Source of the DNA: Yuukianura sp. NJ FZ-2021
Lineage: Eukaryota
Direction of reading: 5' to 3'
Length of the DNA: 64,000 nt
NCBI GenBank assembly: GCA_046563655.1
Contig: CM102289.1
Location: 1,674,001-1,738,000 of the forward strand
In this document: positions 6,890-53,779 of the stretch, one piece after another
How the letters are laid out: every line of letters starts with the position of its first letter
Position numbering within the stretch: the first letter of the stretch is position 1
The notes under the pieces: model-generated
Seen by the model: the letters and a program-made list of their open reading frames with translations, nothing else
What the model was told of the DNA's origin: nothing
Database searches by the model: none
Program-made: the position numbers and the translations under genes

Positions 6890-6892
6890 TAC

Positions 6893-10862: not shown

Positions 10863-11760
10863 TTAAAATGCCAGAAGAGCATTTATATTACAGCCGACAA
10901 CCACTTCAGGGTAAAAGTTCCTCGTGCAGGTTGTTACTGAGACAATTCAGTCTTTCAATCGTTGTTAAATAAATATCTACAAACACTGTCACCAAAAATT
11001 AGACAATTGAAAAGTAATTGTTCAAACTCTCAATCCAGGGACTAAATAAAACACCAAATTTACATAGGATAAAAATCCAGGAATATGTAGGAAATTCTGG
11101 AGTGACGATTTGTAACGCAATAGCTGCCGTTTGGTTATACAATGAAGAGAACAATCCGGGATATTCAAAATACAACAATGGTAGCAACCCATCTGCGCCT
11201 AACCAAAGTGCGCCTACAGCCAAAGTGCGCCTCTATCAATATGCGCCTGAAAAATGTGCGCCTCCGTCCAAAGTGCGCCTCCATCCAAAAAGCGCCTCCA
11301 GCTCCAATTCAATACCAGGTATATTTGGTTTGATTCAATTACAAGTTTGAGCTTTCCAACATGGGTAGTTATCCACAACCCGGGCGTCTATAGTTTCCCG
11401 CGCCGAAGGCGCGGTGTTAGGTTTTTAAATTCGCAATACTGATTACGTCTCGAAGGTATAGATTGGGTAGGTTAGGTTTTTTAAAGTTCACAATACAGAT
11501 TACTTTTCTAGGGTTTCTAACATTTTTTAGGCGCATATTGAGAGGCGCACATTGGAGAGGCGCACTTTGGTTAGGCGCAGATGACCTGGAAGCATTACAA
11601 CAATGGTACGTGAGGACTGATCTATACATTAAGAAGTACCTAATTATTTCACAAAAGTGCAGTAATTAGTTGTGCACGTGGAACACTATTTATTCAGAGC
11701 AACGTTGGTAGCATTAATACAATGTTTGGTAGTTGTTGGGGTGAGTATAACAGATTGTGA
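10863..11760 (-). pseudogene. R0: decayed chemoreceptor-like array gene, closest to R1, interrupted by a foldback element
   Basis: 10863-10908 reads EVVVGCNINALLAF-stop; 10945-11175 matches exon 1 (PGLFSSLYNQTAAIALQIVTPEFPTYSWIFILCKF); 11600-11760 aligns with 14460-14615. Most of exon 2 is missing. Confidence 0.8.
11180..11593. mobile_element. Foldback (Mutator-like) non-autonomous element
   Basis: Long inverted arms built of TGCGCCT-containing tandem units (catctgcgcctaaccaaagtgcgcct / aggcgcactttggttaggcgcagatg); flanks aatacaacaat / attacaacaat (10 of 11 identical). Confidence 0.8.
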
Positions 11761-12382
11761 TGTTGGAGGTTTTTACTCGATACGTTGCATTTTAATGAAA
11801 TAATGGTTGGCGCATCTTTAAATTGTTTATTAGAAACGTTTATTCATATTAAGGAAATTAAATAAACTCCTTAGCATGAGTCTTGGGTGCACCGTCCATA
11901 ACTCGCGCAGATCCATTCCACCAGAACGTCTTTATAATTTGTTTAACCTCAAATCGTGTTTCTAGCACAATGACATAAATTGACAGATGTAAATAAATTG
12001 GGTAAACACAAGCTGACTATGGTTGCACAACGCTCAAGTTGTCTCAAATCATCAAAGTCTGCCAAATCATCCTCAATCGTGTTTTGCAACAAGAGTTTTG
12101 TAAAACAACCTGTTGAAAAGCCAGAAACCCTCAAATAAGAGCACTGGTAAATATTTAACCCCAACAAACACAGCCTTTTTTCGTACTCAGCTTGACACAA
12201 TATCTGGGAATCTTTATAAATCCAATTCATTTCTGCAAATACGTAGAAAATATAGGTTTGGGGTCTGTACTTCTGTACTTGTGTTTTTGTTTAAAAAATA
12301 ATGCTGTTTTGAGACACTTGTCATCCACTTTCGTTTGATAGAAATGCGATTTCCTAATATATGAACAAAAAAAGAATTTGAA

Positions 12383-13003
12383 ATGTCAGGATTATTTGTA
12401 TTTGTTATTTTAAACGTCTTACTTCGTTCAACTCCAATCAGCTCAACACCTATTTTTGGCCGCGAAGTGGTACGTTTTAATTATAAGCCTTGCTAAAGGT
12501 TTCATTATTTAATTAAACCTTAGTGTATTAAGTATTACATAACTGGATTTGTCTTTTCAAACAGGTTATGCCATACGGAAACGCGAGTGACGCCTACGAT
12601 GACCGTAAGAGTATATGTTGCGTATATAATTTCCAATCACTTTGCTCTGAAGCAGCAAAACTTTGTGGTTCTAGGCATATTTTTTCTGCAACCAACTAAC
12701 AGCAACAGTAATGCGAATACTTGTGTATCAAGTGCTACGTGCTGCCGCTATAGGTGCGCTGCTGTGACTATGGCGGGAACAGGAGTTCAAATTGCCTCAG
12801 AATGTGCAACTGGTGCTACGGCGGGATTGGCCGCTGGGCGCTGTATAAGTAGCGATGGTACTGCAGCTTCCATTGCACCTGGAGCGCTTTGTATATTTAG
12901 TGTAACCTGTCCCGCGTGCTTTACTGCGGGTACAACAATCGCTTGTGTAGGACAACAAGAATGTACTACCATATTGGGTAACGCCATTTGCCCATGGACG
13001 TAG
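12383..13003 (+). CDS. Small secreted 12-Cys protein, copy 3 (exons 12383-12469, 12565-12604, 12675-13003; 151 aa)
   Basis: Signal peptide MSGLFVFVILNVLLRSTPISS, linker VMPYGNASDAYDDRIFFLQP, 12-Cys domain ending GNAICPWT; same intron positions and phases as copy 2. Confidence 0.88.
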
Positions 13004-13355: not shown

Positions 13356-14897
13356 TCAAAAAGCCAGGAGAAGGTCAATAATAGAGCCCACCACCACTTC
13401 AGCCCAAATGAACAACACGAATTCCCTCGTTTCAAAAGACGTCACATTCCCCACGTGGATTCGTAGCGGAGTCATTCCTTTCCAAAATTTTGAATCGGAT
13501 TTTGAATATTTTGGCGAATGGTGACGAGCCTGTTGGATTAACTCGTGAGACAGTATATGTTGGTTTGTTGAGAGATTAATAATAAAGTTTGTTGCCAAGA
13601 CAGAACCAAAATCGGCAAATGCCACTGCAAAGACGATCACAAAGGGATTTCCAGATCCCCTGATTGTGAAAAAAGTTAAAATAACAACGCCCATGATAAG
13701 ATTCAGCATCATTAACGAAATTGCATCTTCAAATGCTGCTCGAAATGCTTCACCAGCCACTTTGAGCTTTAAATACGCCAGACGCTCCTCCCAAATGTGC
13801 ACCCAGAAGCGATTTCCGTCTGTTTCTAAGTCCATTTCACTGTTAAATGTGAGAAAGATTTGGACTCAAGGTTTCTTGACAAAGAAGAATGAATTTTCTT
13901 TACAAGGTTGAGTACTACTTCGCGTGTTGACAAAAAAGAAAAATTAGTACCAAATTTAGTACCAATCCAATAAATTGGAACCAACTTATATGCAAAATTT
14001 GCCAAAAACTCGGCTGTATAATTATAACTACGATGGCCTGAAATGAAAGGACAAAGAAATGAAATGAAATGAATTTTGCAAAATCAAAAAATATGATGTA
14101 TTACCCAACCTGGTAAAGAAAATCAATGTCAACTAACCTTGATTTGTACTGATAATTTTAGTAACAAAATTGTTTCAATTCGTGAAAATTTCTTACCAAC
14201 TGAGATCTTTTAGTCTTTCAATTGTTGTAAATAAATATGTGACAAGCCAGTGAGCAAAAACAAGGCAGTTGACTACTGAATGCCCCAGTCCAATCGAAAC
14301 ACAAAATAAAATACTAAATTTGCATACGGAGAAAATCCAGGAAAATGAAGCCGTCTCAGGATTGCTGACTTGTAATGCAATAGATGACATTCCATTGTGA
14401 AATGTAGCGAAGAGTCCAGGAAATGTCCATGACATCGCATATAAAATTGGAACATACAGCAACGGATATATGACTGAACCGCACAACATGAAGAAGCAGA
14501 GGATTTCAAGAAAGAGTGGCAATTTTCTGGACAAGTGGAACATAGTATCCAGAGCATAGTTTGTAATATTAACACAACGTCGTCGAGCAGTTGGGATGAG
14601 CATAACATATTGTGCTGTGTGCAGGATGTTAAAGATGCAGTTTGCCCCAAGAGCAAGTATTTTTTCCATTTCTGTTGTAGCTCCGAATGCTACTTCGTAG
14701 TATAAGTAAGAAATAAACAAACCGACGACAACTGTTGAAAATATTCCAAAACTTCTGCACAATGATGGAAATTTTTGGACAGAGTGGGCAATAGTATCCG
14801 GGTTTTTACGTCCAAAGTTGTACCTCACAGGGACATAATACAGTGTTCCTGCCCACATGTACAACAACTTGACCCATAAGTTCAGCCTTTGCTCCAT
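13356..14897 (-). CDS. R1: Gr-like 7TM chemoreceptor-superfamily protein (exons 14897-14197, 13839-13356; 394 aa)
   Basis: Multiple hydrophobic helices; C-terminal FWKGMTPLRIHVG..FETREFVLFIW..SIIDLLLAF; single phase-2 GT-AG intron, frame checked. Confidence 0.8.
13867..14141. mobile_element. CAAGGTT-ended MITE in the R1 intron
   Basis: Imperfect ~45-bp inverted ends (caaggtttcttgaca..ttttctttacaaggttg / caacctggtaaagaaaa..tgtcaactaaccttg); flanks atttggact / atttgtact. Confidence 0.7.
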
Positions 14898-16241: not shown

Positions 16242-17512
16242 TCAAAATGCAACTAGTAAGGTTATTAGAGAAGACACGACTACGTCTGCCCAAATGAATA
16301 AAATAAATTCCTTAGTTTCAAATGTCGCAAAGCTTCCCACGGGAATTCGAAGTGGTGTCATGCCTTTCCAAAATTTGGATGCTTTTCCTGCACTATTTCG
16401 AGTTCGTCGATGAGCGGCTTGAATCAAAGCTTGAGAAAGCAGATGTAGATCAGTTGCAGTATCAATGGTAAAATTAGCAACACAAAAAGCAACGAAATCA
16501 GCAATAGCAACCAATAGAGTAAGCATCACGACGTGATTGCCACCCCGTATTACAAAAAAAGTTAAAGCAATAATTGCCAGTAGCAAGTTGACCACAACGA
16601 CCGTAACTAAATCTTCAAAAGCCACTTGAAAAGCGGCATTTAGCACTTTGATTTTCATGTACTCGCATGCATTTGTGATGTTTGACTTGTTTTCCATTAA
16701 GGATTCTTCTGTCTCCGTCCATGTTTCACTAATTGCAGTTTTGAAATTTTTGAAACTCAAAATTTTCTAATTTAACTTTTAAATTTTAGAATTCTGATTT
16801 CTACATACCCGACCAAAGCTAAATCCTTTAGTTGTTGGTTAGCTGTATACAGATATATAAAAAGCCAATGAACAAGTGTCATGGCATTCACCATTGAATG
16901 GCCCACTCCGATAGTGATGATGAGCAAGGCGCAAAATTTGAAAATATTGAAGCTCCATGCATATGTGGACGATTGAGGATCCTGGTTCAGTTGGAATGCT
17001 GCAAATGCTATTCCATTGTGTAATGCTGTAAACAAACCTGGAAATGTCCATGCGGCAATACAGAAAGCTGGAAGGAGCGCAAATGGATACACTAATCCGT
17101 TGGAACAGAATAGAAAGCAAATCAATTCAAAAGAAGGCGGTAATTTTTTGGAAATGTGGAACATATTATGAAGAGCGACATTGGTGACGTTGATGCAACG
17201 TTGTCGTGTAGTCGGTAGAAGTAGAATCCATTGCGACATATGAAGAAAACTGAAGACGAGGTTACAACCACCGCCTAATATTTTTGCCATTTCCGTTGTA
17301 TTTCCAAAAAGTATTTCGTAGTACCAGTAAACAGTAAATAATCCAGCGACAAATGTTGAAAATATTGCAAATACCAAGTATATGGATTGCCGCTCTGTTG
17401 GAACAATAGTATTTGCTTGTCCGACTCCAAACTTATACTTGACCGGTATGTAGTTCATGATCTCCGCCCACATATAAAATACTTTTACCCACAAGTTAAT
17501 TCTTTGTTTCAT
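16242..17512 (-). CDS. R2: Gr-like 7TM protein (exons 17512-16809, 16728-16242; 396 aa)
   Basis: Paralogous to R1; same phase-2 intron; frame checked. Confidence 0.8.
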
Positions 17513-18434: not shown

Positions 18435-19725
18435 TTAAAATGCAATCAGTAAGTTGATAAGCGAATTTACAACTACGTCTGCCCATACGAACAAAATGAA
18501 TGCCTTAGTTTCAAATGTCGCAAAGCTTCCCACCGGAATTCGAAGTGGAGTCATTCCTTTCCAAAATTTAAAATCATATTCTGCACTATTTCGAGATCGT
18601 TGACGAGCGCATTGAATCAAACCTTTAGAAAGAAAGTGTTGATCAGTTGAGGTTTCAATGGTAAAATTAGCAACACAAAACATAAAAAAATCAGCAATAG
18701 CAGCCAAAACAGTAAGTAGCGAAGCGTCTCCACTATCGCGCATGACAAAAAAAGTTAGAGCAACGATTCCTATCAGAAAGTTGACCACGATGACCGTAAT
18801 TGAATCTCCAAATGCTGCTTGAAACGCTGTATCCAGCACCCTGATTTTCATGTAATCATTTGAAACATGCTTTATTGATGTGTTTTTGAATAAGGTTCGT
18901 TCTGTCTCCCTGCATGCTTCACTGAAAATCAAGCATAAAATCAGGTTTTTGGTAACTTTCGAAATTTTTCAAATTCAAAATTTTCACATTTTTAACTTTT
19001 AGGATATTGATTTCTATATACCTGGCCAACGTCAGATCTTTCAGTTGCTGGTTAGTTGTATACAGATATATAAAAAGCCAATGAACAAATGACATGACAT
19101 TTACCACTGCGTGGCCCGCTCCGATTGAGATGATAAACAAAACACAAAACTTGAATATTTTTAAGTTCCACAAATATTCAGGCGATTCTAGCTCTTGGTT
19201 CAGCTGGAGCGCTGCAAATGCTATTCCGTTGTGCATTGTTGCAAACAAGCCTGGAAGTATCCATGTAGAAATATAGATGCCAGGGAGGAACGCGAAGGGA
19301 TACAACAATGCGTTGGAGCAGGACACAAAGCAAATCAATTCAAAAGAACGCGGTATTTTTTCTGAAATGTGGAACATATTATGAAGAGCGACATTGGTGA
19401 CATTGATGCAACGTTGTCGTGTAGTCGGTATGAGTAGAATCCATTGCGACATATGCATGAAACTGATGATCATGTTGACACCAACACCATATATTCTTTC
19501 CATTTCCGTTGGATTTCCAAAAATTATTTCGTAGTAGAAGTAAGCTAAAAATAACCCAGTGACAAATGTTGAAAATATTCCAAATACTTTGTACGCCAAT
19601 TGCCGCTTTGTTGGTACAATAGCATCGGATTCTCCAAATCCAAACTTATATTTGACCGGTATGTAGTTCATCATGCCCGCCCAGGCATACAGAACTTTAA
19701 TCCACAAGTTGATTCTTTGTTTCAT
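18435..19725 (-). CDS. R3: Gr-like 7TM protein (exons 19725-19022, 18921-18435; 396 aa; alternative ATG at 19740)
   Basis: Paralogous to R2; same intron; frame checked. Confidence 0.8.
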
Positions 19726-20385: not shown

Positions 20386-20413
20386 GTATGAATTTATTAT
20401 ACATTATACATTA

Positions 20414-20784: not shown

Positions 20785-22448
20785 TTAAAATGTCATGAGA
20801 AGATTAATAACAGATGCCACAACTACTTCAGACCAAACGTACAGAATGAATTCTCTGGTTTCAAAAGATGAAACATCGCCAACATGAATGCACAGAGGGG
20901 TCATTCCTGACCAAAATTTGGCTTCAAATTTTGAAATACTTTTTGCAGCCTGATGAGCTTCTTGAATTAAATTTTTTGACAAAATGTGGTGATCCGTCGA
21001 TAGAACCATGATAAAATGTGTTCCAAGTAGACAAACCAAATCACAAGAAACGGCAGCAATAATAATAATTACATGGTAGTCACCGGCACAAATTACGAAA
21101 AAAGTAGCAACAATAGCAGCAATAAGGAAATTTGTAATGAAAAAAGCAACCGTGTCTCCAAAAGCTACTCGGAATGCTTGTCCCACCAGTTTTACTTTGA
21201 GGTAGTCCATTGTGTCAGCAGGAGATGTTTCACTGTACAATTGAAAAACTAAATTGTTTAAAATCATAAAGTAAACAAACCGTTGTAAACGCCGTAACTA
21301 AGTAGCGAATTGTATATAAGGGTTTGTGACGATGATTCATACATTTGAAGCACGAGGTCAAAGGTCAAGGTCACGAAGTTGTTGTGTCAATGTTATGAAC
21401 ACATTTTGTAAGGTTCATTTTTTCGATTTCCGTGACTGTGAAAAATGTACTTGACCTTGACCTTTGACCCGGAAGTTGGCCACTTCTGGTCAAACCGGAA
21501 ACCACTTGTTTACCCCTGGACCATGTGAAGTTCATCTATGAAGACAGATTGAAAATCCGTCCAGTGGTCCTTGAGTTATAGACGCGCGTAGACAGACAGA
21601 CAGACGAACGGACTGACAGACAGGCCGATACGGGCAAAAACATAAAGTACCGAATAAATTCGCTACTTAATAAAGTATAAATTTGTAGTACATGAAGACT
21701 TTTGGATTTCTTAATTAGTACAATTAAACTGTAAGTGGAATACAAACCTTTTCAAATTGAGTTCTTTTAGTCGTTGTGTAGTTGTAAACAAGTATACACA
21801 AAGCCAATGCGCAACAGTGGCCGTATTGACAGCAGCATGGCCCAATCCAACTGAAATGCTTCCAAATACGCAAAATTCCAATATGTGGAAAATCCAAAAG
21901 TATGTTGTGGATTCCTGGTTAACCAGTTGCAAAGTTACAAATGTTATTCCTTCACGGAATGTTGTAAAAAGTCCAGGAAATGTCCACGACACGACATACA
22001 CACACGGAAAGTACAGAAACGGGTACAAAACAGAGTTGTAACAAAGAAGAAAGCAGACCATGTCAAAAGAAAGTGGCAAACATTTTGACAGACGGAACAT
22101 GGTGTCCAGAGTAACATTTGTGACAGTAATACAGCGTTGTCGCCTAGCTGGAATGAGTAGCACCCACTGCGAGATGTGCAATACGTTAAAGATGCAGTTT
22201 GCTCCGAGTGCAAACAAGGTTTCCGTTTCCGTCGCCTTATTAAACAAGGCGTCGTAGTACCAGCTGAGTATGAATAATCCAACCCAAGCTGTTGAAAATA
22301 TTCCAAAAACTCTGTGTACTGATTGGTGTTTGCACTCCACGATCTTATCGGGTTGTTTCGATCCAAACCGGTATTTTACCGGTACATAACGCATAAATCC
22401 TACCCATTCATACATCACTCTTACCCACAACCTTATTCGCTGCTTCAT
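20785..22448 (-). CDS. R4: Gr-like 7TM protein (exons 22448-21748, 21232-20785; 382 aa)
   Basis: Paralogous; same phase-2 intron, enlarged by an inserted repeat; frame checked. Confidence 0.8.
21273..21674 (-). mobile_element. Helentron-associated (DINE-1/HINE-like) non-autonomous element in the R4 intron
   Basis: 13-bp subterminal inverted repeats TAAGTAGCGAATT (21299-21311) / AATTCGCTACTTA (21657-21669); (GTCY)n microsatellite at ~21590-21625; internal ggtcaaaggtcaaggtca inverted pair; T-rich ends on the minus strand; absent from paralogous introns. Confidence 0.75.
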
Positions 22449-23369: not shown

Positions 23370-24671
23370 TTAAGACGCAATGAGAAGGTCAATAATTGAA
23401 GTAAGAACTACGTCTGCCCAAATAAACAGAATGAATTCCCTGGTTTCAAAAGAACAAACCCCTCCAACACCTATACGCAGCGGAGTCATGCTTTTCCAAA
23501 ATTTTAAATTATAATCTTCATAATTTTTTCTTGCTTGACGATGAGCTGTTTCGATTAAATTTTTAGACAGAAGATGCTGATCAGTTGAAACATGAAGTAT
23601 AAGTTTTGCGACTACAACAGAACCAATATCACCAAGCACAATAGGAACAACAATTGCGACAGGATAATTAGCAACTCCAACACTGAAAAAAGTTAGCACA
23701 ACAATGGCAATCAAAATGTTCAAAACTATGATGGTTACTGGATGTTCAAAGGCTTCGCGAAATGCTTGACCTGCCACTTTGACCTTCAAATACTCCAAAG
23801 GATCTGCACAAATTTTTGTATCCAAACTGCTTTCGTATATGGATTGTCTCATATGTTGTTCTCTGTGAAAGAAAAAGTTACAGAAATTATGGCAAATCTT
23901 TATAGCAGAAATTTATAAAAAATTTTATGGCGGAAAGCCAAATTTCGCCAAATTGCAAAAATTTCTGGCCAACCTGTCTAAACAGAGATCCCTTAAGTTT
24001 TGATTAGTTGTATATAAATTTATAAAAAGCCAATGTAACAGCACGAGAGCGTTGATCATTGCATGGCCTAACGCCACTGAGACAAGAAACAAGACAAAAA
24101 ATTTGAGAATCTTGAAGCACCAAACACTACCACTGGTATTTGGTTCAAAAATTTGAAAAACCGTGAATTCTATCATATAATGAAACGTTGTGAACCCTCC
24201 AGGCAGCGATGATGAAGCAGCATACAATCCTGGAAGGTACAAAAATGGATAAGTGACTGAACCAGCACAGACGATGAGGCAAATCAGTTCAAAAGATGAT
24301 GGCCACTTTCTGGACAACCGGAACATGGTCTCCAAGGCAACGTTGGTGACATTGATACAGCGTTGTCGACTAGCCGGAATGAGGAGCACCCACTGCGACA
24401 TATGCATGATGAGCACAATGGAATTTGCACCAATAGCAACAACGGTTTCAACTTTCCGCGTTGGGCCAAACATAGCTTCGTAGTACCAATTTGCTATAAG
24501 TGAACCAACACCAACTATTGAAAAACAGCTAAAAATTTTATGCACTAAATCATGTTTTGGCACAAGAACGTCGGGTTTTCCATGCACACAGTGATATGTA
24601 ACAGGTATATAGTGCATATATGCTGCCCATTGGTAGACCCACTTAACCCAAAAATTTAGTATTTGGTGCAT
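23370..24671 (-). CDS. R5: Gr-like 7TM protein (exons 24671-23974, 23862-23370; 396 aa)
   Basis: Paralogous; same intron; ends SIIDLLIAS; frame checked. Confidence 0.8.
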
Positions 24672-34420: not shown

Positions 34421-35548
34421 TCTCAAATTCGAAAAAAGAACAAGATTTTCAGGAATGCTTTTCTTATGAGTTAAAAATTTTTCACTTTTTTGAAGCTGAA
34501 TTCGTGTTCCAAATGACTTCAATTTTTTTTTACCTTGACATTCGACTCAACCCGGTTTGTCTAAAATTGGTTTCGATCCGTTTACGCCCAATTTCATCTC
34601 TGAAGTAATTTTGAATTTTTTAGCCCTAAAGTAATGAGTTTTTCAAATTTCAATTTTGATAATTCTCCTACGACATAAGTTTTATGTCAATTTACTGGGA
34701 CTTTTTATTGAATTCTTGATATTTGTACAAAAAAAAGAAGTAATGTTGCCAGTTTTAAGGTTTTATAAGTGATTTATAAGCAAGGCTGCCAAAAATATTT
34801 ACAGAAAACCACCGAAATATTTTAACCTAAGTTAACATTAAGGGCATGGAAAAATAAATGTCTAACAATAAAACAACCGGAAATATTTATTTTGTTAACA
34901 TTACAGGAAGGGAAATAACTAGTTTTGGCTAGTCTGCTTATAAGCAACATGTAAATTGAGCATTTCAGTCTACGATTTTCAAGAAAATTTCTGAAAATAT
35001 AAGAATTCTGTGAATAAAACTTTTTATTCAAGTGTTTTTGTACTTAACTCAAAATCCCTGAAGCATGTTTTGACTATTTTTATAAAACTCTCCGGGCATA
35101 ATGGGGGGAAGAAACCCGAACCTGCATCCCTTCAAAACCCAAATCCTTTGGCGGTTTGGGTTTACATACTTTTGTAAGCGGAGGGAATTCAAACTCATTT
35201 TTGAAATTACAAACTAAAAACTTCGAAAGTCAAGTTAAACTTCAACTTTTTAAAATTCATTTTAGGTTTACAAATCCATTCACTCGTCTACTTTGCTCCA
35301 TACAACACCTAGTAATTTCCAATAACAAATGTAAAATTGTAAAAACAGCGTAGCATAGATAGGTATCTTCATTTACTAAGGTAATAAGTGTTTAGATCAC
35401 ATTCACTCAGATGATATAAAGGTATACTATTATTATACTATACACTATTATTATTTTATACTATTATTTTGTTAAAATTTAGTCCTCATCTTTGGTTAAA
35501 GTTTCTTTTTTTTGCAAAATTTCAGAAACTCCCATTCCACCAACTGCC

Positions 35549-38084: not shown

Positions 38085-38677
38085 AATGTCTCGACTTTTA
38101 TAATGTTAAATTGAATGAGTAACTGTGTAATGGAAGTGGCACAAAAAAAATATACTAACTTAGCCTTTCTACGCGGTTCTACTTCAGCAACAAATGTGTT
38201 CTGAATATTTCTCAGCAAAAATACATCAATATATATGTCATATCTTCAGAATACAGTGCCCAGGCTTAGCCTAAGATTACATATATTTTTGTTCTTGAAT
38301 TCCTAAAGCCTGTTTTTCTCCTCCATCACACCTACGTTTTCTAAAAAAAAATCCAAGACTATATTTTTCTAAATGACATACTTTTTACTATTCATTTTTT
38401 CTTCCACGGCGGCTGGGTTATGTGGGTTCATGAAAAAACTCGTATTTTAGAAACAATTTTCTCCATCATAATTGTACAAAGCATTTGAAAAAATTGATGG
38501 TTTATTTGCTAACTGTCAGTAATCGAAGGTTATTCTAAGTTGAGAATGTTATGCAAGACAAACTCGAAAAACGTCGCAACATTTTTTTTTTTAGAAAATT
38601 GCACGGTCTTCAAAAGGAGAAATTAGAAACGGTAATTTTATATCTTGAATACACGGTGAAACAAATTTATTTCAATT

Positions 38678-39232: not shown

Positions 39233-39748
39233 ATCAAGACGCCGATTCCATACCTTGCATAGATGTTCAGAAGACCTAAATTCCTAATGTAAAATTTTCT
39301 ATTGTTCTCATAGAATTGTCATGGGCGAGGGGGCACGAAGAAACCCGATCCTGCCTCCACTCAAAACCTTAATTTTTTGGCGGTTTACAAACTTTTGTGA
39401 GCCTTGAAAATTCAAACTCATTTCTAAAATTACAAACCAAAAACTCCAAATTCAAAAGTTTATAAAGCTCCAACTTTTTTGAAACCATTTTGGGTTTACT
39501 AATTCATTTACTCTTCAAATCCTTGTTTTTCAAAGTTGGAAAAAATTGCTACAAAAGAAAACTGATTAAAAGGTAAAGTAAATTGTAGAAACAGCATAAG
39601 TTGTCTACTTTTACTCAGGTAAGTGTACAGCCTCTCTACATGTACAAAGTAGATATAAGCTATACGGTTCTGTTTTTTTGTTTTTTTTTTTAATTTATAA
39701 ATCGTTTCTTTCTATTTTAAAATTTCAGAAACTCCAATTCCAACCGGC

Positions 39749-40687
39749 ATGAAAAGATCAAAGTCAAGACAAATTTTTTACGGCAGGTTCAAATGCCCCG
39801 AGTGTCCCAGATCTTACTTGTCAAAAAAGCATTTAAATGCTCACAAACGAACTCACTCACCAAATAACCCTTACGCCTGCACCGTATGCAACCATCAATT
39901 TGAATCCAACACTGGACTCACCCGTCACCTTGAAAGAGCGGATGCCCAGGGTCAGTTCAAATGTCATCTGTGTTTGGTCACCTTGACAACAAAACATGAA
40001 AAGACAATTCATCTTCGAACACACGGCGATTCTGGAATGAATTGCACTCAATGCAACAAACAGTTCAGGAGCAAAACTGGTTTTGCTCTACATTCGCAAA
40101 AGTACCATGCTGGAAAAAACGAGAAGTCGGAATCTCCTCATCAACCTCAACATGACGAGGTTGAATCGGAAGAAGAAAACGATGAAGATGAAAGTGATGA
40201 AATTTTGGAAACGAGTAGTGCAATTAACGAAGTAGTGGAAGATTCTTCTGACAATCCGAAACCAAACATGCCGAAAATTTCCGAAACGGACTCAGATGAA
40301 GTCGACCGCGACACTAACGGAAACGCTGACAAAGTCAAGCATCCTATTCATAAGTGTCCACTCTGTGACTTCACGTCGCGTCGAAACTACAACCTCACTG
40401 CACACATGAAACGCAAACACTCTATTACAAAAGTGTACAATTGCAGTGTCTGCTCAAGTGATTTTGAAACGTACATTGATTTGAAACGACATGAAAGAAA
40501 ACATGGTCAAAAAAAGTTCAACAAGTGCCGGTACTGCGGAAAATACTTTCAATCTGGAGCTGGGCTGCAGAACCACGAAAACATTCACACCGGTACAAAA
40601 AACCACAAATGTGAAATTTGCGGAGCAGCGTTTGTTCAAAAACCAAACTTAATCAGACATGTAAAATTCTGTATCACGCTACTCTAA
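39749..40687 (+). CDS. ZF3: C2H2 zinc-finger protein, paralog of ZF2, 312 aa
   Basis: Identical N-terminus MKRSKSRQIFYGRFKCPECPRSY and the same 4+4 layout; upstream DNA also paralogous. Confidence 0.88.
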   Translation: MKRSKSRQIFYGRFKCPECPRSYLSKKHLNAHKRTHSPNNPYACTVCNHQFESNTGLTRHLERADAQGQFKCHLCLVTLTTKHEKTIHLRTHGDSGMNCTQCNKQFRSKTGFALHSQKYHAGKNEKSESPHQPQHDEVESEEENDEDESDEILETSSAINEVVEDSSDNPKPNMPKISETDSDEVDRDTNGNADKVKHPIHKCPLCDFTSRRNYNLTAHMKRKHSITKVYNCSVCSSDFETYIDLKRHERKHGQKKFNKCRYCGKYFQSGAGLQNHENIHTGTKNHKCEICGAAFVQKPNLIRHVKFCITLL

Positions 40688-40967: not shown

Positions 40968-42273
40968 CTAAAATGCTAAGAGGAGATTTATGATTGATGA
41001 AAGGACTACTTGCGCCCAAATGAACAAAATGAATTCTTTTGTTTCAAATGTCGAAAAACTTCCAACACAAATGCGTAAGGGAGCCATGCTCTTCCAAAAT
41101 GTTGATTCGTATTCTGAACATAATTTTGTACGTTGACGAGCTATTCTAATTAAGTTTTTAGACAAAATGTACTGATCAGTTGAAATGGACAAGAGAAATG
41201 CTGCACATTCTATACCAGCTAAATCTGCAACAGTAATTACTAAAACGATCATAAGAGGATACTCGCTGCTGGCTCGAATTACAAAAAATGAGAAAGCGAT
41301 CATGCATACCAAAATATTAACTACAAATACAGTAACTATACCTCCAAAAGCTACCTCAAATGCTTTGCCAATTACTTTAACTTTCAAATACTCCGATGTT
41401 CCTGGACAATTGCTTTCTGCAATTTGACGTCCAAAACAATCGCCTTCTTTCTGCCAGAGTGGTTCACTATAAACAAAAATAAAACACTTCAAATTTATTT
41501 TTTGAAAATAGTTTGATCCTATTTTTGAAAACCCAAAAGTAGTAACTAAGAAACAAATTTTATTTGACCTACCCGGAGAAGCAGAGATCTTTCAGTTGTT
41601 GATTGGTTGTGAACAAATATAGAAAGATCCAATGAAGCAGTGTATTAGCATTGATTAGTGCATGACCTATGCCTACTGCGATGCTAGATAAAGCAATAAG
41701 TTTGAATACTATGAATAACCAAGCGTACGCGTTTGATTCCGGACTGCTGAGTTGTGAAGCAGCAACTTCCAGTACATTATTCAATGTTGTGAACAGCCCA
41801 GGTAATGCCAATGACATAGCGTATACGAATGGCAGTAAGATAAACGGATACGCTATCGATGTCGAACAAAATTGCAAACATATCATTTCAAAAGAGCGCG
41901 GCAATTTTCTGGACAAATTGAATTTGGTATTTAGCGTAATGTTTGTGACGTTGATGCAACGTTGTCGTGCATTCGGAATAAGTAGAATCCATTGTGCCAT
42001 ATGCAATACATTAAAGACACTGTTCAGTCCCACGGCAATAATTTTTTCAAGTTTTGTCGTATTAGAAGAAACGGTTTCATAGTACCAGTATACTATAAGT
42101 ATCCCAATAACAACCGTACAAAATACTCCCAACACCTTGTACACTGTGTTGTTTTTGGTATGAACAATAGTGTCAGGCTGTCCATGTCCAAAATGGTAGG
42201 TTACCGGTACGTAGTGCAGAAATCTTGTCCAAGTATACATTAACCTAACCATTAAATTAGTTCGATCCTTCAT
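40968..42273 (-). CDS. R9: Gr-like 7TM protein (exons 42273-41573, 41466-40968; 399 aa)
   Basis: Paralogous; same intron; frame checked. Confidence 0.8.
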
Positions 42274-42963
42274 AATGCCTTGAGTTCTTTAGTGTGACAC
42301 TGAGTGTGAATAAGTGTGAAATGGCGGTAAAACAGCGAAATGTAACAATTTAGCCTTTCACGGTTCTACTTCAGCAATAAATGTGTTCTCCAGGTGTATA
42401 CATGATTATATATTTCAAAACTTCATGAAACGGAATTGTAACTTTGCGCGTGTTTAACTTAATTTTCGTCCATGAATTCATAGAACATGTTTTCTCCTCC
42501 CCCTTTAAACCTATAACATATTTTTCCTTTACACGTACAATACTTTCTAAATACAAAGGATTTTCAGAATTATATATTTTATAATGACATACTTTCTGCA
42601 ATTTGTTGTTCTACGTATAACGAATAGTTCATGCCGGCTTATTAAAAAATTTGTATGCCGAATAACCCTTTTTCCATCACTTTTGTGCAAAGCATTTAAA
42701 GCAAATTAATGGTATTTTTGCAAACTGCGAATAAATCGAGCGCTATTAAAAGTTGACAGTGCAGAAAACTTTTAGAAACTTTTTAAGTAAATATCAGTCA
42801 ACTAATTGCATGCATTGAAGTAAATTGCAGTCTACTAATTACATGTATTTAAGTAAATTGCAGTCTACTAGTTGCAATTAACTCAAGTAAATTGCAGTCA
42901 TTAAAAACGGTAATTTTATGTTGCACATACATGGTGAAACAATATTGATTTTAGCTTCCAATT

Positions 42964-43337: not shown

Positions 43338-44622
43338 CTAAAATGCTAATAGGAGGTTTACAATTGATGTAATAACTACTTGTGACCAAATGAACAAAAT
43401 GAATTCTCTTGTTTCCAGCGAAGAAAAGGTTCCAACACAAATGCGTAATGGGGTCATACTCTTCCAAAATTTTGACTCGTATTTTGAGCATGGCTTTACT
43501 GCTTGACGAGCTAGTCTGATAATGTTTTTAGACAAAATGTACTGATCAGTTGACATTGACAAGAAGAGAGCTGTACATACTATCGCAGCAAAATCGGCAA
43601 TGACATTAACAAAAACAATCGTAAGAGGATATTCGCTACTGGCACGTATTGCAAAAAATGAAAAGATGATCATACCCATCAAAATGTTAACTACAAAAAC
43701 AGTAATTAAATTTTTAAAGGCTACCTCAAATGCTTTACCAATTACTTTAACTTTCAAATACTCCATTGTAATTAGACAGCTTTGAGGTCCACGAAAATTG
43801 GGTTCGTTCTGGCGTACTTCACTATAAAAAAAAAGAAAAGTTACGAAAGTTTTTTGAAACTTGCAAAAACACTAAAAATTAAGTTTATAAAAACTAAAAC
43901 CAGGATTAATTTTATCCAACTTACCCTGCCATGCAGAGATCCTTCAGTAGCTGCTTGGTTGTGAACAAATATATAAAGATCCAATGAAACATGATATGAC
44001 CATTAACCGATGCATGTCCTATACCAACTGCAATACTAAAGAAGGTAATAAATTTGAATATTATGAACAGCAAGAAGTAGGTCTTTGTTTCCGGACTGCT
44101 GATTTGTGAAATAGTAATATCGAGTACATTGTGAATTGTTGTGAACAGCCCAGGTAATGCCCATGACATAGCATATACGAATGGCAAATACAGAAAAGAA
44201 TACGATATTGATGTCGAACAGAGTTGCAAACATAGCATTTCAAAAGAGCGCGGCAATTTCTTGGACAAATGGAACTTGGTATCGAGAGTAATGTTGATGA
44301 CGTTGATGCAGCGTTGTCGTGTATTTGGAATGAGTAGAATCCATTGTGACATATGCAATATATTAAGGAAATTGCTTAGCCCAAAACCAATTACTTTTTC
44401 AAATTTTGTCGTAGAACCAAAAACGGTTTCGTAGTACAAAGATGATATAAATACGGCATGAGCAGCCGTAGAAAATGCTCCCAACACCTTGTACACTGTG
44501 CTGTTTTTGGTGGGAACAATAGTATCAGGCTTTCCATGTCCAAAATGGTATGCTACCGGTACGCAGCGTATGAAGTTTGCCCAAGCATACATTAACCTCA
44601 CCCAGATATCGGTTCGACTCAT
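43338..44622 (-). CDS. R10: Gr-like 7TM protein (exons 44622-43925, 43821-43338; 393 aa)
   Basis: Paralogous; same intron; frame checked. Confidence 0.8.
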
Positions 44623-45631: not shown

Positions 45632-46904
45632 CTAAAATGCTAAAAGGAGATTTACAATTGATACACTCACTTGTAACCAAATGAACAAAACGAACTCTTT
45701 TGTTTCAAGGGAAGAGAAACCTCCAACAACGATGCGCAATGGAGTCATACTCTTCCAAAATTTTGATTCGTATTTTGAGCATGGCTTTACTGCTTGACGA
45801 GATAATCTAATAATGCTTTTAGACAAAATGTACTGATCAGTTGACAATGAGAAGAAGAGGTCTGTACATACTATTGCAGCAAAATCGGCAATAACAATAA
45901 CAAAATCTATCGTAAGAGGATACTCGCCGGTGGCACGTATTGTAAAAAATGAGTAGACGATCATACCCATCAAAATGTTAATTACAAATACAGTAATTAG
46001 CTCTCCAAAGGCTACCTCAAATGCTTTACCAATTATTTTAACTTTTAAATACTCCATTGTATCGGGACAAATTTGAGGTCCAAAAAAATTGAATTTTTTC
46101 TGGCGTACTTCACTATAAAAAAAATATCAAAATTATTTAAAAATTACAAAATCACTTTGAATTTAGTGTATAAAACTAAAACCAGGATAAATTTCATCCG
46201 ACCTACCCAGCCATGCAGAGATCGTTTAGTAGTTGCTTGGTTGTGAACAAATATGTAAACATCCAGTGAAACATAATATGACCATTAACCGATGCATGAC
46301 CCATGCCCACTGCAATACTAAGGCAAGTAATAAATTTGAATATTATGAACAGCAAGAAGTACGCGGTTGTCTCCGGACTGCTGATTTGTGAAATAGTAAT
46401 ATCGAGTATATTGTGAATTGTGGTGAACAGCCCAGGTAATGCCCATGACATAGCGTAAACAAATGGCAAATAAATGAACGAATACGATATTGACGTCGAA
46501 CAGAGTTGCAAACATAGCATTTCAAATGAGCGCGGCAATTTCTTGGACAAATGGAACTTGGTATCGAGAGTAATGTTGATGACGTTGATGCAGCGTTGTC
46601 GTGTATTTGGAATGAGTAGAATCCATTGTGACATATGCAATATATTAAGGAAATTGCTTAGCCCAAAAGCAATTACTTTTTCAAATTTTGTCGCAGAACC
46701 AAAAACGGTTTCATAGTACAAAGATGTTATAAATACGCCAAGAGCAGCCGTAGAAAATACTCCCAACACCTTGAACACTGTGTTGTTTTTGGTGTGAACA
46801 ATGGTATCAGGCTTTCCATGTCCAAAATGGTATGCTACCGGCACGCAGCGCATGAAGTTTGCCCAGGCATACATTAACCTCACCCAGATATCGGTTCGAT
46901 TCAT
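45632..46904 (-). CDS. R11: Gr-like 7TM protein (exons 46904-46207, 46112-45632; 392 aa), recent duplicate of R10
   Basis: Exon 1 nearly identical to R10; frame checked. Confidence 0.8.
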
Positions 46905-47334
46905 TCTACAATGTTATATTCAACTTTATGCTTCAGCATTACATGTTTTCTAAATTTCTAAAATAAAATTATTGTAGGTGCTTACGCAAGAAACCTTCAA
47001 GAAACTTGGAGTTTTTACTTAGTGTTTTCACTTTTTCCAGAATTTAAAAAAAAGTCTTGAAATTATTGAACAATTCTTGAGTTTTTGGAAACGTAAAACA
47101 TCTTTTAAAAAGTTCCAGACGAATGATATTATGATCAAACAAAAAGTTATTTTTCGTTTGTTTGCGGTTGAGTTAAGTTAGCTAATGCAGGAAATCGTAA
47201 TATATATAAACAACTTTTCTCCCGAAGGTAATGCAAGGTATTCCAAAAAACCGATAGTTTCATTGCTATCGGTTAGTAAATCGTAGTTAATGGGAAGTTA
47301 AGGATATGTTCTCTCCAAATGACAGGAAACGAAA

Positions 47335-48285: not shown

Positions 48286-49565
48286 CTAAAATGCTAAGAG
48301 GAGATTTATAACTGATGAAACAACTACTTGTGACCAAATGAACAAAATGAATTCTTTCGTTTCAAACGAAGAAAAGCTGCCAACAACGATGCGTAATGGA
48401 GTCATGCCGTTCCAAAATTTTGAGTTGTATTTAGAGTAGGATTTTCTTGCTTCTTGACGAGCTAGCTCAATTAAACTTTTACTTAGAATGTACTGATCAG
48501 TTGAAATAGCCAGGAGCACGGCGGCGTCTACTGTAGAAGCACAATCGGCACTAACAATAACAAAAACTATCGCAAGAGGAAAGTCACCACTGGCACGAAT
48601 TGCAAAAAATGAGAACACGACCACAATCACCAAAATATTAATTACAATTACAGTAATTAAATTCCCAAAAGCCACCTCAAATGCACTGCCGATTACTTTA
48701 ACCTTCAAATACTCCAAAGAATCTGAAGATTGAATTCCAGAGCAACTGCCTCCTCCATTCTTGCGTACTTCACTATAAACATCAATTAGAATTGTACTTA
48801 AAAGTTTTAAAAACGCTTTAAAAGTTTGAAACAAAACTAAAAACAATAAGTACAGCACATATTCTACTGGACCTACCAGGCCAAGCAGAGTTCGTTTAGT
48901 TGTTGATTAGTTGTGAACAAATACATATAAATCCAATGAAACAAGGTACAAACATTGACCGCTGCATGACCCATGCCAACTGCAATAATCCAAAACGCTA
49001 TAAACTGTAATATGATGAACGCCGAATACTGCGGAACGCTGAGTTGTGAAACGATAAATGCAAGTATATTGTTAATTGTTGTAAACAGTCCAGGTAATGC
49101 CCATGACGCAGCGTACAGGAATGGTAGGAACATAAACGGATACATTATTGATGAAGAACAGAAGATGAAACACATCATTTCAAAAGAGCGTGCCATTTTT
49201 CTTGATAAATGGAACTTTATATGGAGAGTACTGTTAACGACGTTGATGCAACGTTCTCGTTTGGTTTGAATAAGTAGAATCCATTGTGTCATATGCATTA
49301 CATTGCATACACTATTTATGCCCACAGCAATTATTTTTTCAAATTTTGTAGTAACACCAAAAATGGTTTCGTAGTACCAACATACTATAAGTGCCCCCAT
49401 AACAACTGTAGAGAATACTCCAAACACCTTGTATACAGTGTTATTTTTAGGTTGAACAATAGTATCAGGCTGTCCATGTCCAAAATGGTACGTTACCGGC
49501 ACGTAGTGCATAAATCTTGTCCAAGTATACATCAACCTTACCCAATGATTGGTTCGCTCCTTCAT
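48286..49565 (-). CDS. R12: Gr-like 7TM protein (exons 49565-48877, 48772-48286; 391 aa)
   Basis: Paralogous; same intron; frame checked. Confidence 0.8.
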
Positions 49566-50223
49566 ATTTCCTCGATTAATGTTGTATGAATCGTGTAATA
49601 GCGGTAATGCCAAGAATTAGAACGACTTAGGCGGTCACGGTATAGTCAAGCAATGAATGTGTTCTTGACGCTAAAACACATGAGTTTATATATCAAGCAT
49701 TCGCGACTTTTGACTGCATTTGACTTTGACCATAATTATACAAATTTTTGTCCAGGAATAGCAAAACCATGTTAACTACCACGCCTATTTTTTCTTCCAT
49801 GTCGGTTAAGCATGTCGACTTATGGATAAATTTGTATTTTAACAACCACCCTTCATCATGTTTATGCATAGCTTTTCAAAAAAATTATACCTGCTTTGCT
49901 AAATGTAGGTAAGTCAAATGAGATTAACAAGTTAATGATATATTTTCCAAAAATGACAGGCTTTAATAACTATGATAAATTTGTTTCAGGGAAATTTTTT
50001 TGTAGCCCGCTAGAGTAGTATGTTTTGTCTTTAGTAAATTGTACAGTAATTATTTTTTCTTATTAAATTGTAGCCTACTAGCGTAATAATCAAAAATGAC
50101 AAAGAGAAAGGTCAAAACCCAATCAAAAATCTGGTTAATGGTAATTGAACAAAATTTTCACCAATTGTTAAAATCAATATTGAGGTCATTTTTGCAAATT
50201 TTCAGGCTGAATGAGTTATCATT

Positions 50224-51493
50224 TTAAAATGCTAAGAGAAGATTCGCAAGTGAGGCAATGACTACTTGAGACCAAATGAATAAAATGAATTCTTTTGTTT
50301 CAAAAGTAGAAAAACGTCCAATAGGAATGCACAGTGGTGTCATGCTCGTCCAAAATTTTGATTTGTATTTTGAGCAGGATTTTCTTGCTTGGTGACGAGC
50401 CATTTCAATTAAACTTTTAGATAAAATGTACTGATCAGTTGAAATGGACAAAATTAGAGCTGTACATGCTATTGCAACAAAATCGGCACTAACAATAGCA
50501 AAAACTATTGCAAGGGGATAGTCAGCGATGGCACGAATTGCAAAAAATGAGAAAACGACGATACTTGCCAAAATATTAATTACAAATACTGTAATCATAT
50601 GTCCAAAAGCAGCGTTAAATGATTCCCCAATTACTTTAATTTTCATATACTCCAATGAGTCTGGGCAAATTTTAGTGCCAAAGCAATTGCCTCGTTTATA
50701 CCGGCGTACTGCACTACAAACAAATCAAGAGATACAAAAAATATAAATTTATTTTAAAAAACTAACGGCAATAACTACAAGAGAAATTTTATTTGACCTA
50801 CCCGAGATCCTTTAGTCGTTGATTAGTAGTAAACAAATGCATAAACATCCAATGAAAGAGAGTAGCAACATTAACCACCGCATGACCCATGCCAACTGCA
50901 ATACTAGAGAAAGCAATAAATTGTAATACGATGAATAGCCCGACGTACGTGGTAGACTCCGGACTGCTGAGTAGTGAAGCAGTAACTGCCAGTATATTGT
51001 GAATTGTTGTGAACAGTCCAGGTAATGCCCAAGACATAGCGTATATAAATGGCAGTTCGATAAATGGATAAACTATTGATGCCGAGCATAAAAGGAAAAA
51101 TATCGTTTCAAAAGAGCGCGGTAATTTTCTGGATAGATGGAATTTGGTATTGAGAGTAATGTTTGCGAGGTTGATACAACGTTGTCGTGTACTTGGAATA
51201 AATAGGATCCATTGTGCCATATGCGTTATAATGAGGGCATTGCTTACACCAAAAGCAATTATTTTTTCAAATTTTGTCGCCGGGCCAACAACTGCTTCAT
51301 AGTACCAACACGTTATAGCTGTCCCAACAACAACCGTAGAAATAACTGCAATCCTGTTGTAAGCTAGCTTGTTTTTAGTGAGAACAATACTATCAGGCCG
51401 CCCTTCTCCAAAATGGTATGTTACCGGTACGTAGTGCATAAATTTTGTCCAACTATACATTAACCTTACCCACAAATTGGTTCGATCCAGCAT
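50224..51493 (-). CDS. R13: Gr-like 7TM protein (exons 51493-50802, 50713-50224; 393 aa)
   Basis: Paralogous; same intron; frame checked. Confidence 0.8.
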
Positions 51494-52223
51494 AATTTTT
51501 CGAGTCTTATGTAATCTTGAAAGAATAATTGGGTAATAGCGATAATACCAAGAAATACAACGAGTTAGCATTTCAAAGTTTTACTTTTGCAATGGATGTG
51601 TTGTAGATGTTTTTAAGCTTAAAGTCCACTTACATTTCTATCCTTCAAACAACTGTGTTTTTCCGTGGGTCCAAAATTAAATACATGCAAGCCTTTGAAA
51701 TCATAAAATGTTTCTTGTGTTTTTTAAAAACTTAAAACATTTTTAAAAGGAATGATATCGTAAATTGAAACTAAAAGTGTTTTTATTCCATAACGGTTTC
51801 AAACATTTCCAAAATCGATATAGTTTCTTACCAATCTGTTTCTAAGTCCAAAGGTCATCGAAAGTTAAGCATAAGTTCTGAAATAACAAGCTGTATGTCC
51901 TTGAATTGAAACCTTGCAATCTGAAACTCTGTGCAGACAGACTAAATCAGACGTTAAATTTTGTATCACACTATTCTAGATGTAGAACAATACGTTTGTT
52001 TACAAATTACATAGTACAGATTACACAGGAAGTAAATGCAGAAAAATTACAGTACATCTCATAAGAAACTCTACAAATTAAAAATTAAAAAAAAAACGTG
52101 CATTTCTTAATTCACAATTAGCGAAATGGTGCTTTAAATTTAAATGCATCAAAATTGATTAAATTATAAATTTAACTTTGATTTACTAAACGTGACATTC
52201 AAAATGCCGAATGAGTTATTATT

Positions 52224-53779
52224 CTAAAATGCTAAGAGGAGGTTTACAAGTGATGAAATAACTACTTGTGACCAAATGAACAAAATGAATTCTTTTGTCT
52301 CAAGGGTAGAAAAACATCCGACATCGATGCGTAATGGAGTCATGCTCTTCCAAAATTTTGATTCGTATTTTGAGCATGGTTTTGCTGCTTGATGAGCTAC
52401 TTTGATTAAACTTTTAGACAAAATGTAGTGATCAGTGGAAAAGGATAAGACAATTGATGTACATATTATTGCAACAAAATCAGCAACAACAATAACAAAA
52501 ACAATTGCAAGAGGATACTCGCTGGTGGCACGTATTGCAAAAAATGAGAAAACGACCATACCCATCAAAGCATTAGTTACATATACAGTAATTGTATCCC
52601 CAAAGGCTACCCCAAATGCTTTACCGACTACTTTAACTTTTAAATATTCAAATGTATCTTGACTGGTTTGAGATCCACAAAAATCGCCTTCTTTTTTTCC
52701 CCGTACTTCACTATAAAAAACACAATATAATCAAAATTGTATATTTATTTTAAATTTAATTTTAATGTTTAATTAAATTTATTTTATCAAAACTAAAAGC
52801 AGGACACTTTATATTCGACCAAGATTGGTAAACAACCAAACAAATTGTTTATTCTACACCAGGTTGTTCAATAACTCGACGTTTTTAATTTCCTCAAATA
52901 ATTTCCAAAACTTGTGTTGCCGTGCCTTCCAATGGTAATGATTTGTATACAATTTAATAGGAATTGGGGGAAAATTGGAGGGAAAAATTGTTTGCATGAA
53001 GATTTTGGCAAACCCCGAGTTGTTGAACAACCTGTTGTAGGAAATAAAATTGGTTGCTATAGCAACTTGTATTCGACCTACCCAGTCACGCAGAGATCCT
53101 TCAGTTTTTGCCTGGTTGTGAACAAATATGTGTAGATCCAATGAAAGTGGATATGAGCACTAACTGATGCATGACCCAACCCAACTGCAATAATAAAGAA
53201 AGCAGTAAATTTCAACACTTTGAATAGCCAGACATACGCGTTTGACTCCGGACTGCTGAATTGTGAAGCAGCAACTGCCAGTATATTGTGAATCATTGTG
53301 AACATCCCAGGCAATGCCCATGACATAGCATATACAAACGGCAAATATACAAACGAATACGATATTGAAGTCGAACAGAGTTGGAAACACATCATATCAA
53401 AAGAACGCGGTAATTTTCTGGACAAATGGAACTTGGTATCCAGGGCAACATTGGTGACGTTGATGCAAAGTTGTCGTGTATTTGGAATAAGTAGAATCCA
53501 TTGTGACGTATGCAGTATATTGAGGAAATTGTTTAGCCCAAAAGCAATTAATTTTTCAAATTTTGTCGTAGAACCAAAAACGATTTCGTAGTACCAATAT
53601 ACTATAAGTGTCCTAAAAGCAACCGCAGAAAACATCCCATACATTTTGTACACTGTGTTGTTTTTAATGTGAACAAGAGTATCTGGCTCTCCATGTCCAA
53701 AGTGGTATGTTACCGGTACGTAGCGCATAAAACTTGCCCAAGTATACATTAACTTTAGCCACAAATTGGTTCGATTCAT
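52224..53779 (-). CDS. R14: Gr-like 7TM protein (exons 53779-53082, 52710-52224; 394 aa)
   Basis: Paralogous; intron carries a MITE; frame checked. Confidence 0.8.
52820..53069 (+). mobile_element. CAAG-ended MITE, 250 bp, in the R14 intron
   Basis: CAAG...CTTG ends; perfect 8-bp TSD TATTCGAC (52812-52819, 53070-53077); inner ~25-bp inverted repeat ctacaccaggttgttcaataactcg / cgagttgttgaacaacctgttgtag. Confidence 0.9.

Follow-up and report, generated by a model that had tools for sequence, protein, structure and literature searches.

Here we describe a tandem family of putative chemoreceptor genes in a window of 64,000 nucleotides (nt), i.e., the whole stretch of DNA that was analyzed, from Yuukianura sp. 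NJ FZ-2021 (assembly GCA_046563655.1, contig CM102289.1, positions 1,674,001 to 1,738,000). The minus strand of this window carries, between positions 10936 and 53779 (43 kb), 13 intact two-exon genes for proteins of 382-399 amino acids (aa), accompanied by two broken copies, as established from six-frame open reading frames (ORFs) and tblastn. We propose that the array represents the lineage-specific expansion of a branch, cryptic in sequence, of the seven-transmembrane (7TM) ion channels to which the odorant receptors (Ors) as well as the gustatory receptors (Grs) of insects belong, and that its products are probably chemoreceptors. Structural modelling makes it almost certain that the proteins have the Or/Gr fold, that of the 7TM ion channel (7TMIC) superfamily. 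The chemoreceptor function, in turn, is inferred from this fold together with the evolutionary pattern of the family.

The full-length fold was obtained from an AlphaFold2 model of a homologue, P0010, computed without templates from an alignment of 63 rows, all of the 26 window exons being among them. The model presents a pLDDT of 89.6 and a pTM of 0.89. When it was compared with the PDB by Foldseek, the 20 rows listed down to rank 24 were all insect Grs or Ors, with template modelling (TM) scores of 0.44-0.62, and the row following this block had an E-value of 0.49 and a TM score below 0.2. The structural alignment with Or and Gr chains is collinear from the N- to the C-terminus at an identity of 6-12%, with Z scores of 22.6-25.7 for Ors vs. 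18.8-21.1 for Grs; the higher values for Ors are suggestive, and may reflect only the conformation of the model or the exposure of AlphaFold to the Orco structure of 2018. Furthermore, exon 1 of one of the window's own genes, g8 (numbering as in Table 1), resembles the N-terminal half of an Or or Gr when folded alone, and ends in a helix of 52 residues (181-232).

In the models, an N-terminal helix and a beta hairpin are followed by the transmembrane segments S1 and S2, a helix in the first intracellular loop (IL1), S3, a helix in the second extracellular loop (EL2), and then S4 to S7b. In P0010, S4 (194-246), S5 (251-295) and S6 (302-344) reach 53, 45 and 43 residues, respectively, and the last segment is divided into S7a (349-356), a linker with two short strands, and S7b (374-395), which ends the protein. 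The outer loops comprise 4 (EL1), 24 (EL2) and 7 (EL3) residues in g8 numbering, vs. 27 for IL1 and about 47 each for IL2 and IL3. Moreover, the mean number of lysines plus arginines in the 13 proteins is 23.2 in the four predicted inner regions vs. 1.2 in the four outer ones. This positive-inside count and the collinear structural alignment fit an N-terminus inside and a C-terminus outside the cell, an orientation opposite to that of G-protein-coupled receptors (GPCRs). Seven transmembrane helices packed as in Orco and MhOR5, an N-in/C-out orientation, short outer loops, long S4-S6 that extend into the cytoplasm and a split S7, which are among the defining features of 7TMICs given in a preprint (10.1101/2023.08.30.555482), are all found in the predicted proteins.

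These results agree with a preliminary description of the window, which had judged the length and helix pattern to be typical of the insect Gr/Or superfamily and had expected an inside N-terminus: the former is upheld by the P0010 model and Foldseek, and the latter by the loop charges. The seven hydrophobic stretches and a length of about 400 aa would also suit GPCR-like seven-helix receptors with an extracellular N-terminus. This explanation is contradicted by the fold and the charges, as neither GPCR packing nor an outside N-terminus was found, and its probability is negligible. No fold other than that of Ors and Grs, and no GPCR-like topology, emerged from P0010, from exon 1 of g8 or from the charges.

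At the sequence level, the family cannot be filed as Gr or Or proper, since its profile, its TM7 motif and its intron pattern all differ from those expected. None of the 63 family sequences matched the Pfam profiles 7tm_6, 7tm_7, Trehalose_recp or DUF3537 at E<=10, and the earlier prediction that 7tm_6 and 7tm_7 would miss the family thus came true. No Pfam receptor family was detected in the window exons, in nine full-length homologues (E<=1) or in the 63 alignment members, and when the PDB was searched by sequence the exon-1 profile returned nothing and the exon-2 profile a single chance match (dynein light chain, E 0.95). The Gr TM7 motif has been defined as TYhhhhhQF (PMC9998090) and was used in springtail annotation as T/S-x6-QF (PMC5644144). 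The last nine residues of the array proteins, S-h-h-[NDT]-L-L-h-[ATS]-F, are placed in the spacing of this motif, the serine being present in 13/13 proteins and the final phenylalanine in 12/13, while tyrosine and glutamine occur in 0/13. A longer C-terminal signature put forward in the preliminary description holds as a consensus, being exact in 4 of the 13 proteins and within three substitutions in 10, and does not hold as a strict pattern (g5 has four substitutions, g4 six, and g11 a one-residue deletion). Finally, Grs typically carry three C-terminal phase-0 introns (PMC9998090, PMC13388675), none of which is found in the array genes.

Reading of the junctions in the 13 intact genes verified that each has a single intron of 80-515 nt, in phase 2 and in one column of the alignment, at the cytoplasmic turn between S4 and S5. 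Exon 1 ends two bases into a codon (xx), directly followed by the donor GTA[AGT]G or, in two genes, GTT[GT]G; the acceptor YAG precedes T/A, the third codon base, and GAA-type codons. No intron breaks exon 2 between the S4-S5 turn and the stop codon in any of the 13 genes, and the 13 spliced models sustain the earlier remark that the usual C-terminal phase-0 introns are absent. The exon join is independently confirmed by nine full-length relatives, described below, which are single ORFs collinear with the spliced models.

The copies themselves were delimited from stop-to-stop ORFs and from tblastn of exon translations against the window, which yielded 14 exon-1/exon-2 pairs and one lone exon-1 fragment. 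In each pair, an ORF of about 235 codons is followed, 80-515 nt downstream, by another of about 160 codons. A family hidden Markov model (HMM), run against all six-frame ORFs of at least 30 aa in the window, matched just the 29 pieces that make up these pairs and the fragment, with E-values from 1e-6 to 1e-107, and beyond these no ORF of the window scored below E 0.1. The second ATG was taken as the start codon of g3 and g13. The count of 13 intact genes and two pseudogenes on one strand given in the preliminary description, with its coordinates, is therefore recovered by ORFs, tblastn and HMM alike. Its picture of a head-to-tail array stands as regards tandem copies on one strand, and needs correction in that other genes lie between the copies, namely three that encode C2H2 zinc fingers and a three-exon multi-pass membrane gene unrelated to the array.

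Of the two broken copies, the fragment consists of tblastn pieces at 10936-11187 (E 1e-11) and 11692-11763, with an HMM match at 11002-11232 (E 1e-6), and its exon 2 was not found in the window. GC-rich short tandem repeats with a unit of about 13 nt lie at 11200-11330 and 11540-11600 on the minus strand and separate the two remnants. In the other, g6, exon 1 is 84% identical to that of g2, yet residues invariant in the 13 intact copies have been lost; the arms of the insertion in its exon 2 are at about 26389-26441 and 26472-26531. This element resembles a miniature inverted-repeat transposable element (MITE), with inverted arms of about 50 nt made of 15-nt sub-repeats. A dispersed repeat with a common ORF-like stretch is also found in opposite orientations at 6890-7186 (plus strand) and 52854-53159 (minus strand), the latter copy within the intron of g14.

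Relatives of the array exist outside the window. A profile of the 13 exon-1 sequences, searched against 1.84 billion representative proteins, gave 52 matches, 51 of which were kept. The one dropped as spurious, P0048, is a bird protein of 2,451 aa in which a short repeat was matched 16 times, and whose tblastn against the window gave E >=0.58. Nine of the 51 are full-length single ORFs (376-415 aa) that align over their whole length with the joined exons 1 and 2 and share the C-terminal block of the window genes. The source databases were looked up for 30 relatives (29 of the 51, and P0035), and all were of metagenome type (JGI/IMG, ENA or Logan), none being NCBI or UniRef; on the basis of these 30, the family seems therefore to be missing from annotated proteomes. 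Word-index searches were little informative: with exon 1 of g8, 0 of 632 candidates passed, the index being too coarse for this family, and with the 63-row profile only P0010 and P0035 were returned. Language-model look-alikes of P0010, which constitute a lead only, include arthropod clusters at 0.97-0.98, one of them automatically named "Odorant receptor", and plant DUF3537 and nematode 7tm_7-bearing clusters at 0.91-0.92.

A scan of metagenome contigs added 31 loci (L001-L031). By tblastn, 14 are uninterrupted, 13 are split at the site of the window-gene intron, and four have the C-terminal half only. Among the 13 split loci, a phase-2 GT donor occupies the homologous position in at least nine; in two more an in-frame stop there fits such a donor, and two are ambiguous. 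One locus, L004, holds two tandem copies. Since 28 of the loci, with 27-44% identity to the window genes, come from a single data set, the family is, as judged from these contigs, large in at least one other organism.

The evolutionary pattern was examined in a tree of 50 rows, from which P0048 and the shortest fragments were left out. When set against 37 relatives, the 13 window genes come together in a single clade, with ultrafast bootstrap (UFBoot) and Shimodaira-Hasegawa-like approximate likelihood ratio (SH-aLRT) supports of 100/100. Within it, g7-g14 constitute a tight subclade (100/99; 60-87% aa identity), and g1-g5 share 42-50% identity with all others, except for g2 and g3 (67%). The pairs g2+g3 and g10+g11 are recent, g10 and g11 being the closest of all (87% aa identity). 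Identities and tree thus reproduce the subgrouping noted earlier, with divergent first genes and a tight set at the other end. Nonsynonymous to synonymous substitution ratios (dN/dS), computed according to Nei and Gojobori (NG86), are below 1 in 78/78 pairs, with a median of 0.31 and a maximum of 0.55, so that the dN/dS check proposed at the outset gives the same answer in every pair; the youngest pair has a dN of 0.068 and a dS of 0.229. By this measure, the 13 genes are under purifying selection.

These data also bear on the idea that the copies are non-functional, decaying ORFs or cargo of repeat elements, the fold match being an artefact of a shallow alignment. Two of the 15 copies are indeed broken, and repeats and MITE-like elements occur in and around the genes. 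Against it, 13 frames of about 390 codons remain open across a correctly placed intron, the dN/dS values are those just given, the invariant residues lost in g6 are kept in all intact copies, 51 relatives (nine of them full-length) exist in independent metagenome data, and the pLDDT quoted above was reached without templates. This explanation is thus very improbable. As regards the lineage-specific chemoreceptor expansion of the preliminary description, its evolutionary and structural parts persist, through the single clade and the Or/Gr fold. The sequence criteria do not place the family among Grs or Ors proper, the host is most likely a springtail rather than a true insect, and the chemoreceptor function is probable.

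Conservation along the proteins is uneven. Pairwise identity is high in S7a (66%), the linker (72%), S7b (70%) and the IL1 helix (68%), and low in S1 (47%), the outer part of S4 (48%), S6 (45%) and the tip of IL2 (25%). The same gradient has been described for Ors, in which pore and anchor are conserved and the helices of the pocket are divergent (10.1101/2023.08.30.555482). If the array proteins work as the solved Or/Gr channels do, four subunits would be joined by an "anchor" on the cytoplasmic side (S4-S7a), and S7b would line a cation pore in the centre; the paralogues would each bind a small molecule of their own in a pocket formed by the outer halves of the helices, thereby gating the pore directly; and a chemosensory neuron would express one paralogue or a few, each paralogue occurring in small sets of neurons. 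The repertoire would turn over through duplication by unequal crossing-over and through loss, of which the two pseudogenes would be examples.

Several points weigh against this interpretation. The training of AlphaFold2 may have included the 2018 Orco structure. The dN/dS values of 0.3-0.55 are rather relaxed. The sequencing runs listed as containing the array stretch comprise four of DNA and none of RNA, which says nothing about expression either way. The fold alone gives no function, and among the proteins that possess it some have roles other than chemoreception: the expression of GrlHz is broad and found in non-neuronal tissue (PMC9998090), and a relative from a cnidarian takes part in patterning the body (work cited in PMC5644144). 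The array could then encode a non-chemoreceptor 7TMIC, such as a light or temperature sensor, or a developmental, housekeeping or intracellular channel. We regard this as rather improbable. Housekeeping 7TMICs such as GrlHz are lineages conserved across Holozoa (PMC9998090), unlike 15 tandem copies with pseudogenes, 42-87% identity among paralogues and monophyly at the species level; furthermore, variation falls on those helices that in Ors build the ligand pocket, whereas pore and anchor are conserved.

A different question is the ancestry of the family. Rather than an old, separate 7TMIC lineage or a relative of Ors, it could be a recently and strongly derived offshoot of ordinary collembolan Grs, in the way that fly Grl36a/43a derive from Gr36; the Gr motif and the phase-0 introns would then have disappeared, and the present intron would be a later acquisition. 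The preserved spacing of the TM7 motif, with its serine (13/13) and phenylalanine (12/13), is in keeping with such an origin, and so is the presence within the array of a second multi-pass membrane gene (32884-34546) with a 7tm_7-related look-alike (0.89), which recalls the Gr36/Grl36a neighbourhood (PMC9998090). Yet the glutamine and tyrosine of the motif are missing from all 13 proteins, no Pfam Gr profile is matched at E<=10, and the comparison with this second gene is non-significant (hhalign probability 0.3% and 2.5%; family HMM E 0.9-3). In addition, the metagenomic relatives are deep, with branch lengths of about 0.7-1 and several well-supported clades that have the phase-2 intron in common; the deep clades and the common intron both speak for some age of the family. 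Altogether, a derived-Gr origin is a serious possibility whose chances fall a little short of even. A bolder proposition is that the array belongs to the main, so far unannotated, family of receptors of odorant type in springtails. This would be a radiation of 7TM channels that resembles Ors, is structurally nearer to Ors than to Grs, and occurred in a hexapod class reported to be without Ors and Orco; it would be either a sister lineage bearing on the origin of insect Ors or a way of smelling on land that arose independently. We hold this to be speculative and on the whole unlikely.

The genes surrounding and interrupting the array are included in Table 1. The second membrane gene has no Pfam match; the look-alikes of its C-terminal block are arthropod clusters at 0.97 and one cluster at 0.89 in which 16% of the members carry 7tm_7. 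Possibly it encodes another receptor of the Gr type, unrelated to those of the array. The two plus-strand zinc-finger genes are paralogues with 71% identity that adjoin g8 and g9, and therefore a unit of about 4.2 kb, composed of a receptor gene and a zinc-finger gene, is suggested to have been duplicated as a block. The three small cysteine-rich ORFs are 64-74% identical across their last 100 residues, without a Pfam match in the two that were scanned, and possibly represent a family of secreted peptides. No tRNA and no Rfam family was detected in the window.

A 20-nt element is repeated on the minus strand at 31493-31512, 38182-38201, 42369-42388, 46931-46950, 49645-49664 and 53868-53887, i.e., upstream of g7, g8, g9, g11, g12 and g14, at 27-336 nt from their start codons. 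A pattern search gave these six matches, all on the minus strand, vs. 0.02 expected by chance. The element may be part of a promoter or of a 5' untranslated region, or may be only a remnant of recent duplication.

Table 1. Receptor-like genes of the array and other features of the window, in order of position.
Feature	Position	Strand	Description
Leucine-rich-repeat (LRR) gene, artichoke/chaoptin type	1486-6889	+	Multi-exon; LRR C-terminal cap, long low-complexity tail
Small cysteine-rich protein ORF 1	8756-9097	+	Paralogous to the other two; interleaved with fragment and g1
Small cysteine-rich protein ORF 2	10229-10582	+	As above
Fragment (pseudogene)	10936-11763	-	Degraded exon-1 pieces, most like g1; stop codon and inserted repeat
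Small cysteine-rich protein ORF 3	12524-13003	+	As above
g1	13356-14897	-	Intact, 394 aa; exon 1 14197-14897, intron 357 nt, exon 2 13356-13839
g2	16242-17512	-	Intact, 396 aa; exon 1 16809-17512, intron 80 nt, exon 2 16242-16728
g3	18435-19725	-	Intact, 396 aa from ATG 19725 (upstream ATG 19740: +5 aa); intron 100 nt
g4	20785-22448	-	Intact, 382 aa; intron 515 nt with repeat-like DNA
g5	23370-24671	-	Intact, 396 aa; intron 111 nt
g6 (pseudogene)	25968-27430	-	Exon 1 open; exon 2 broken by inverted-repeat (MITE-like) insertion at about 26389-26531
C2H2 zinc-finger gene 1	28382-29479	-	Interleaved with receptor genes
g7	29878-31157	-	Intact, 396 aa; intron 89 nt
Multi-pass membrane gene	32884-34546	-	Inside array; three ORF blocks of 176, 109 and 153 aa
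C2H2 zinc-finger gene 2	35483-36502	+	Interleaved with receptor genes
g8	36772-38084	-	Intact, 395 aa; exon 1 37384-38084, intron 125 nt, exon 2 36772-37258
C2H2 zinc-finger gene 3	39701-40687	+	Interleaved with receptor genes
g9	40968-42273	-	Intact, 399 aa; intron 106 nt
g10	43338-44622	-	Intact, 393 aa; intron 103 nt
g11	45632-46904	-	Intact, 392 aa; intron 94 nt
g12	48286-49565	-	Intact, 391 aa; intron 104 nt
g13	50224-51493	-	Intact, 393 aa from ATG 51493 (in-frame upstream ATG 51571: +26 aa); intron 88 nt
g14	52224-53779	-	Intact, 394 aa; intron 371 nt with dispersed-repeat copy

The flanking leucine-rich-repeat gene informs about the host. Its ORF at 2970-4169 (399 aa) shares 56% identity with a protein of the springtail Allacma fusca (E 4e-167), the alignment covering 97% of the ORF, and all other matches covering most of this ORF reach at most 34% identity. 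On the strength of this one gene, the host is most likely a springtail (Collembola) and thus outside the insects when these are strictly defined.

Springtails count among the oldest hexapods on land. If our interpretation is correct, the chemoreceptor repertoires of non-insect hexapods would be under-counted. In Holacanthella, 18 Grs were reported with a filter that required T/S-x6-QF (PMC5644144; see also PMC6080948 for modest Gr numbers), a motif absent from the array family. The array would also offer a concrete candidate for the detection of odours or tastants by springtails and, for the debate on the origin of insect Ors (PMC13388675), a datable branch marked by the common phase-2 intron.

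Among known systems, insect Ors (Pfam 7tm_6; solved structures of AgamOR28, MhOR5, AaegOR10, Orco and ApisOR5) differ from the array proteins, which have no 7tm_6 match, only 6-12% identity to them and their own phase-2 intron; moreover, Ors and Orco have been reported as absent from Collembola (PMC6080948, PMC5644144). Arthropod Grs (7tm_7, Trehalose_recp; solved structures of Gr43a, Gr64a and BmGr9) are distinguished by the profile match, the tyrosine and glutamine of the motif and the phase-0 introns that the array genes lack. The Drosophila Grls (Benton and Himmel, 2023, PMC9998090) are set apart by their description, as few and mostly single fly genes vs. 15 copies in 43 kb here. Other 7TMICs, i.e., animal GRLs, plant DUF3537, GrlHz and PHTF, have in common the fold of the superfamily (10.1101/2023.08.30.555482), but the array proteins show no DUF3537 match and are without the long IL1 of PHTF, and they are multi-copy and fast evolving, whereas GrlHz and PHTF are conserved orthologues.

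Like the array family, the groups of Collembola and Diplura that were termed precursor ORs, relict GRs and basal hexapod GRs (Mitchell et al., 2026, PMC13388675) are overlooked and newly recognized lineages of the superfamily in non-insect hexapods. Those lineages were found by Gr homology, their bitter supergroup retains the Gr phase-0 introns, unlike the array genes, and only 1-4 precursor ORs have been reported for each springtail genome. The array family has two core motifs of five letters, which had 0 occurrences in the readable part of one supplement to that work, and a collembolan precursor OR given there, compared by eye, is unlike the array family. The same authors explicitly expect further cryptic lineages. 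Thus, although no description of the array family was found in the literature searched, it would be of a kind already known, that of the cryptic Or/Gr lineages recognized through their structure, which comprises the fly Grls, the relict GRs and the precursor ORs.

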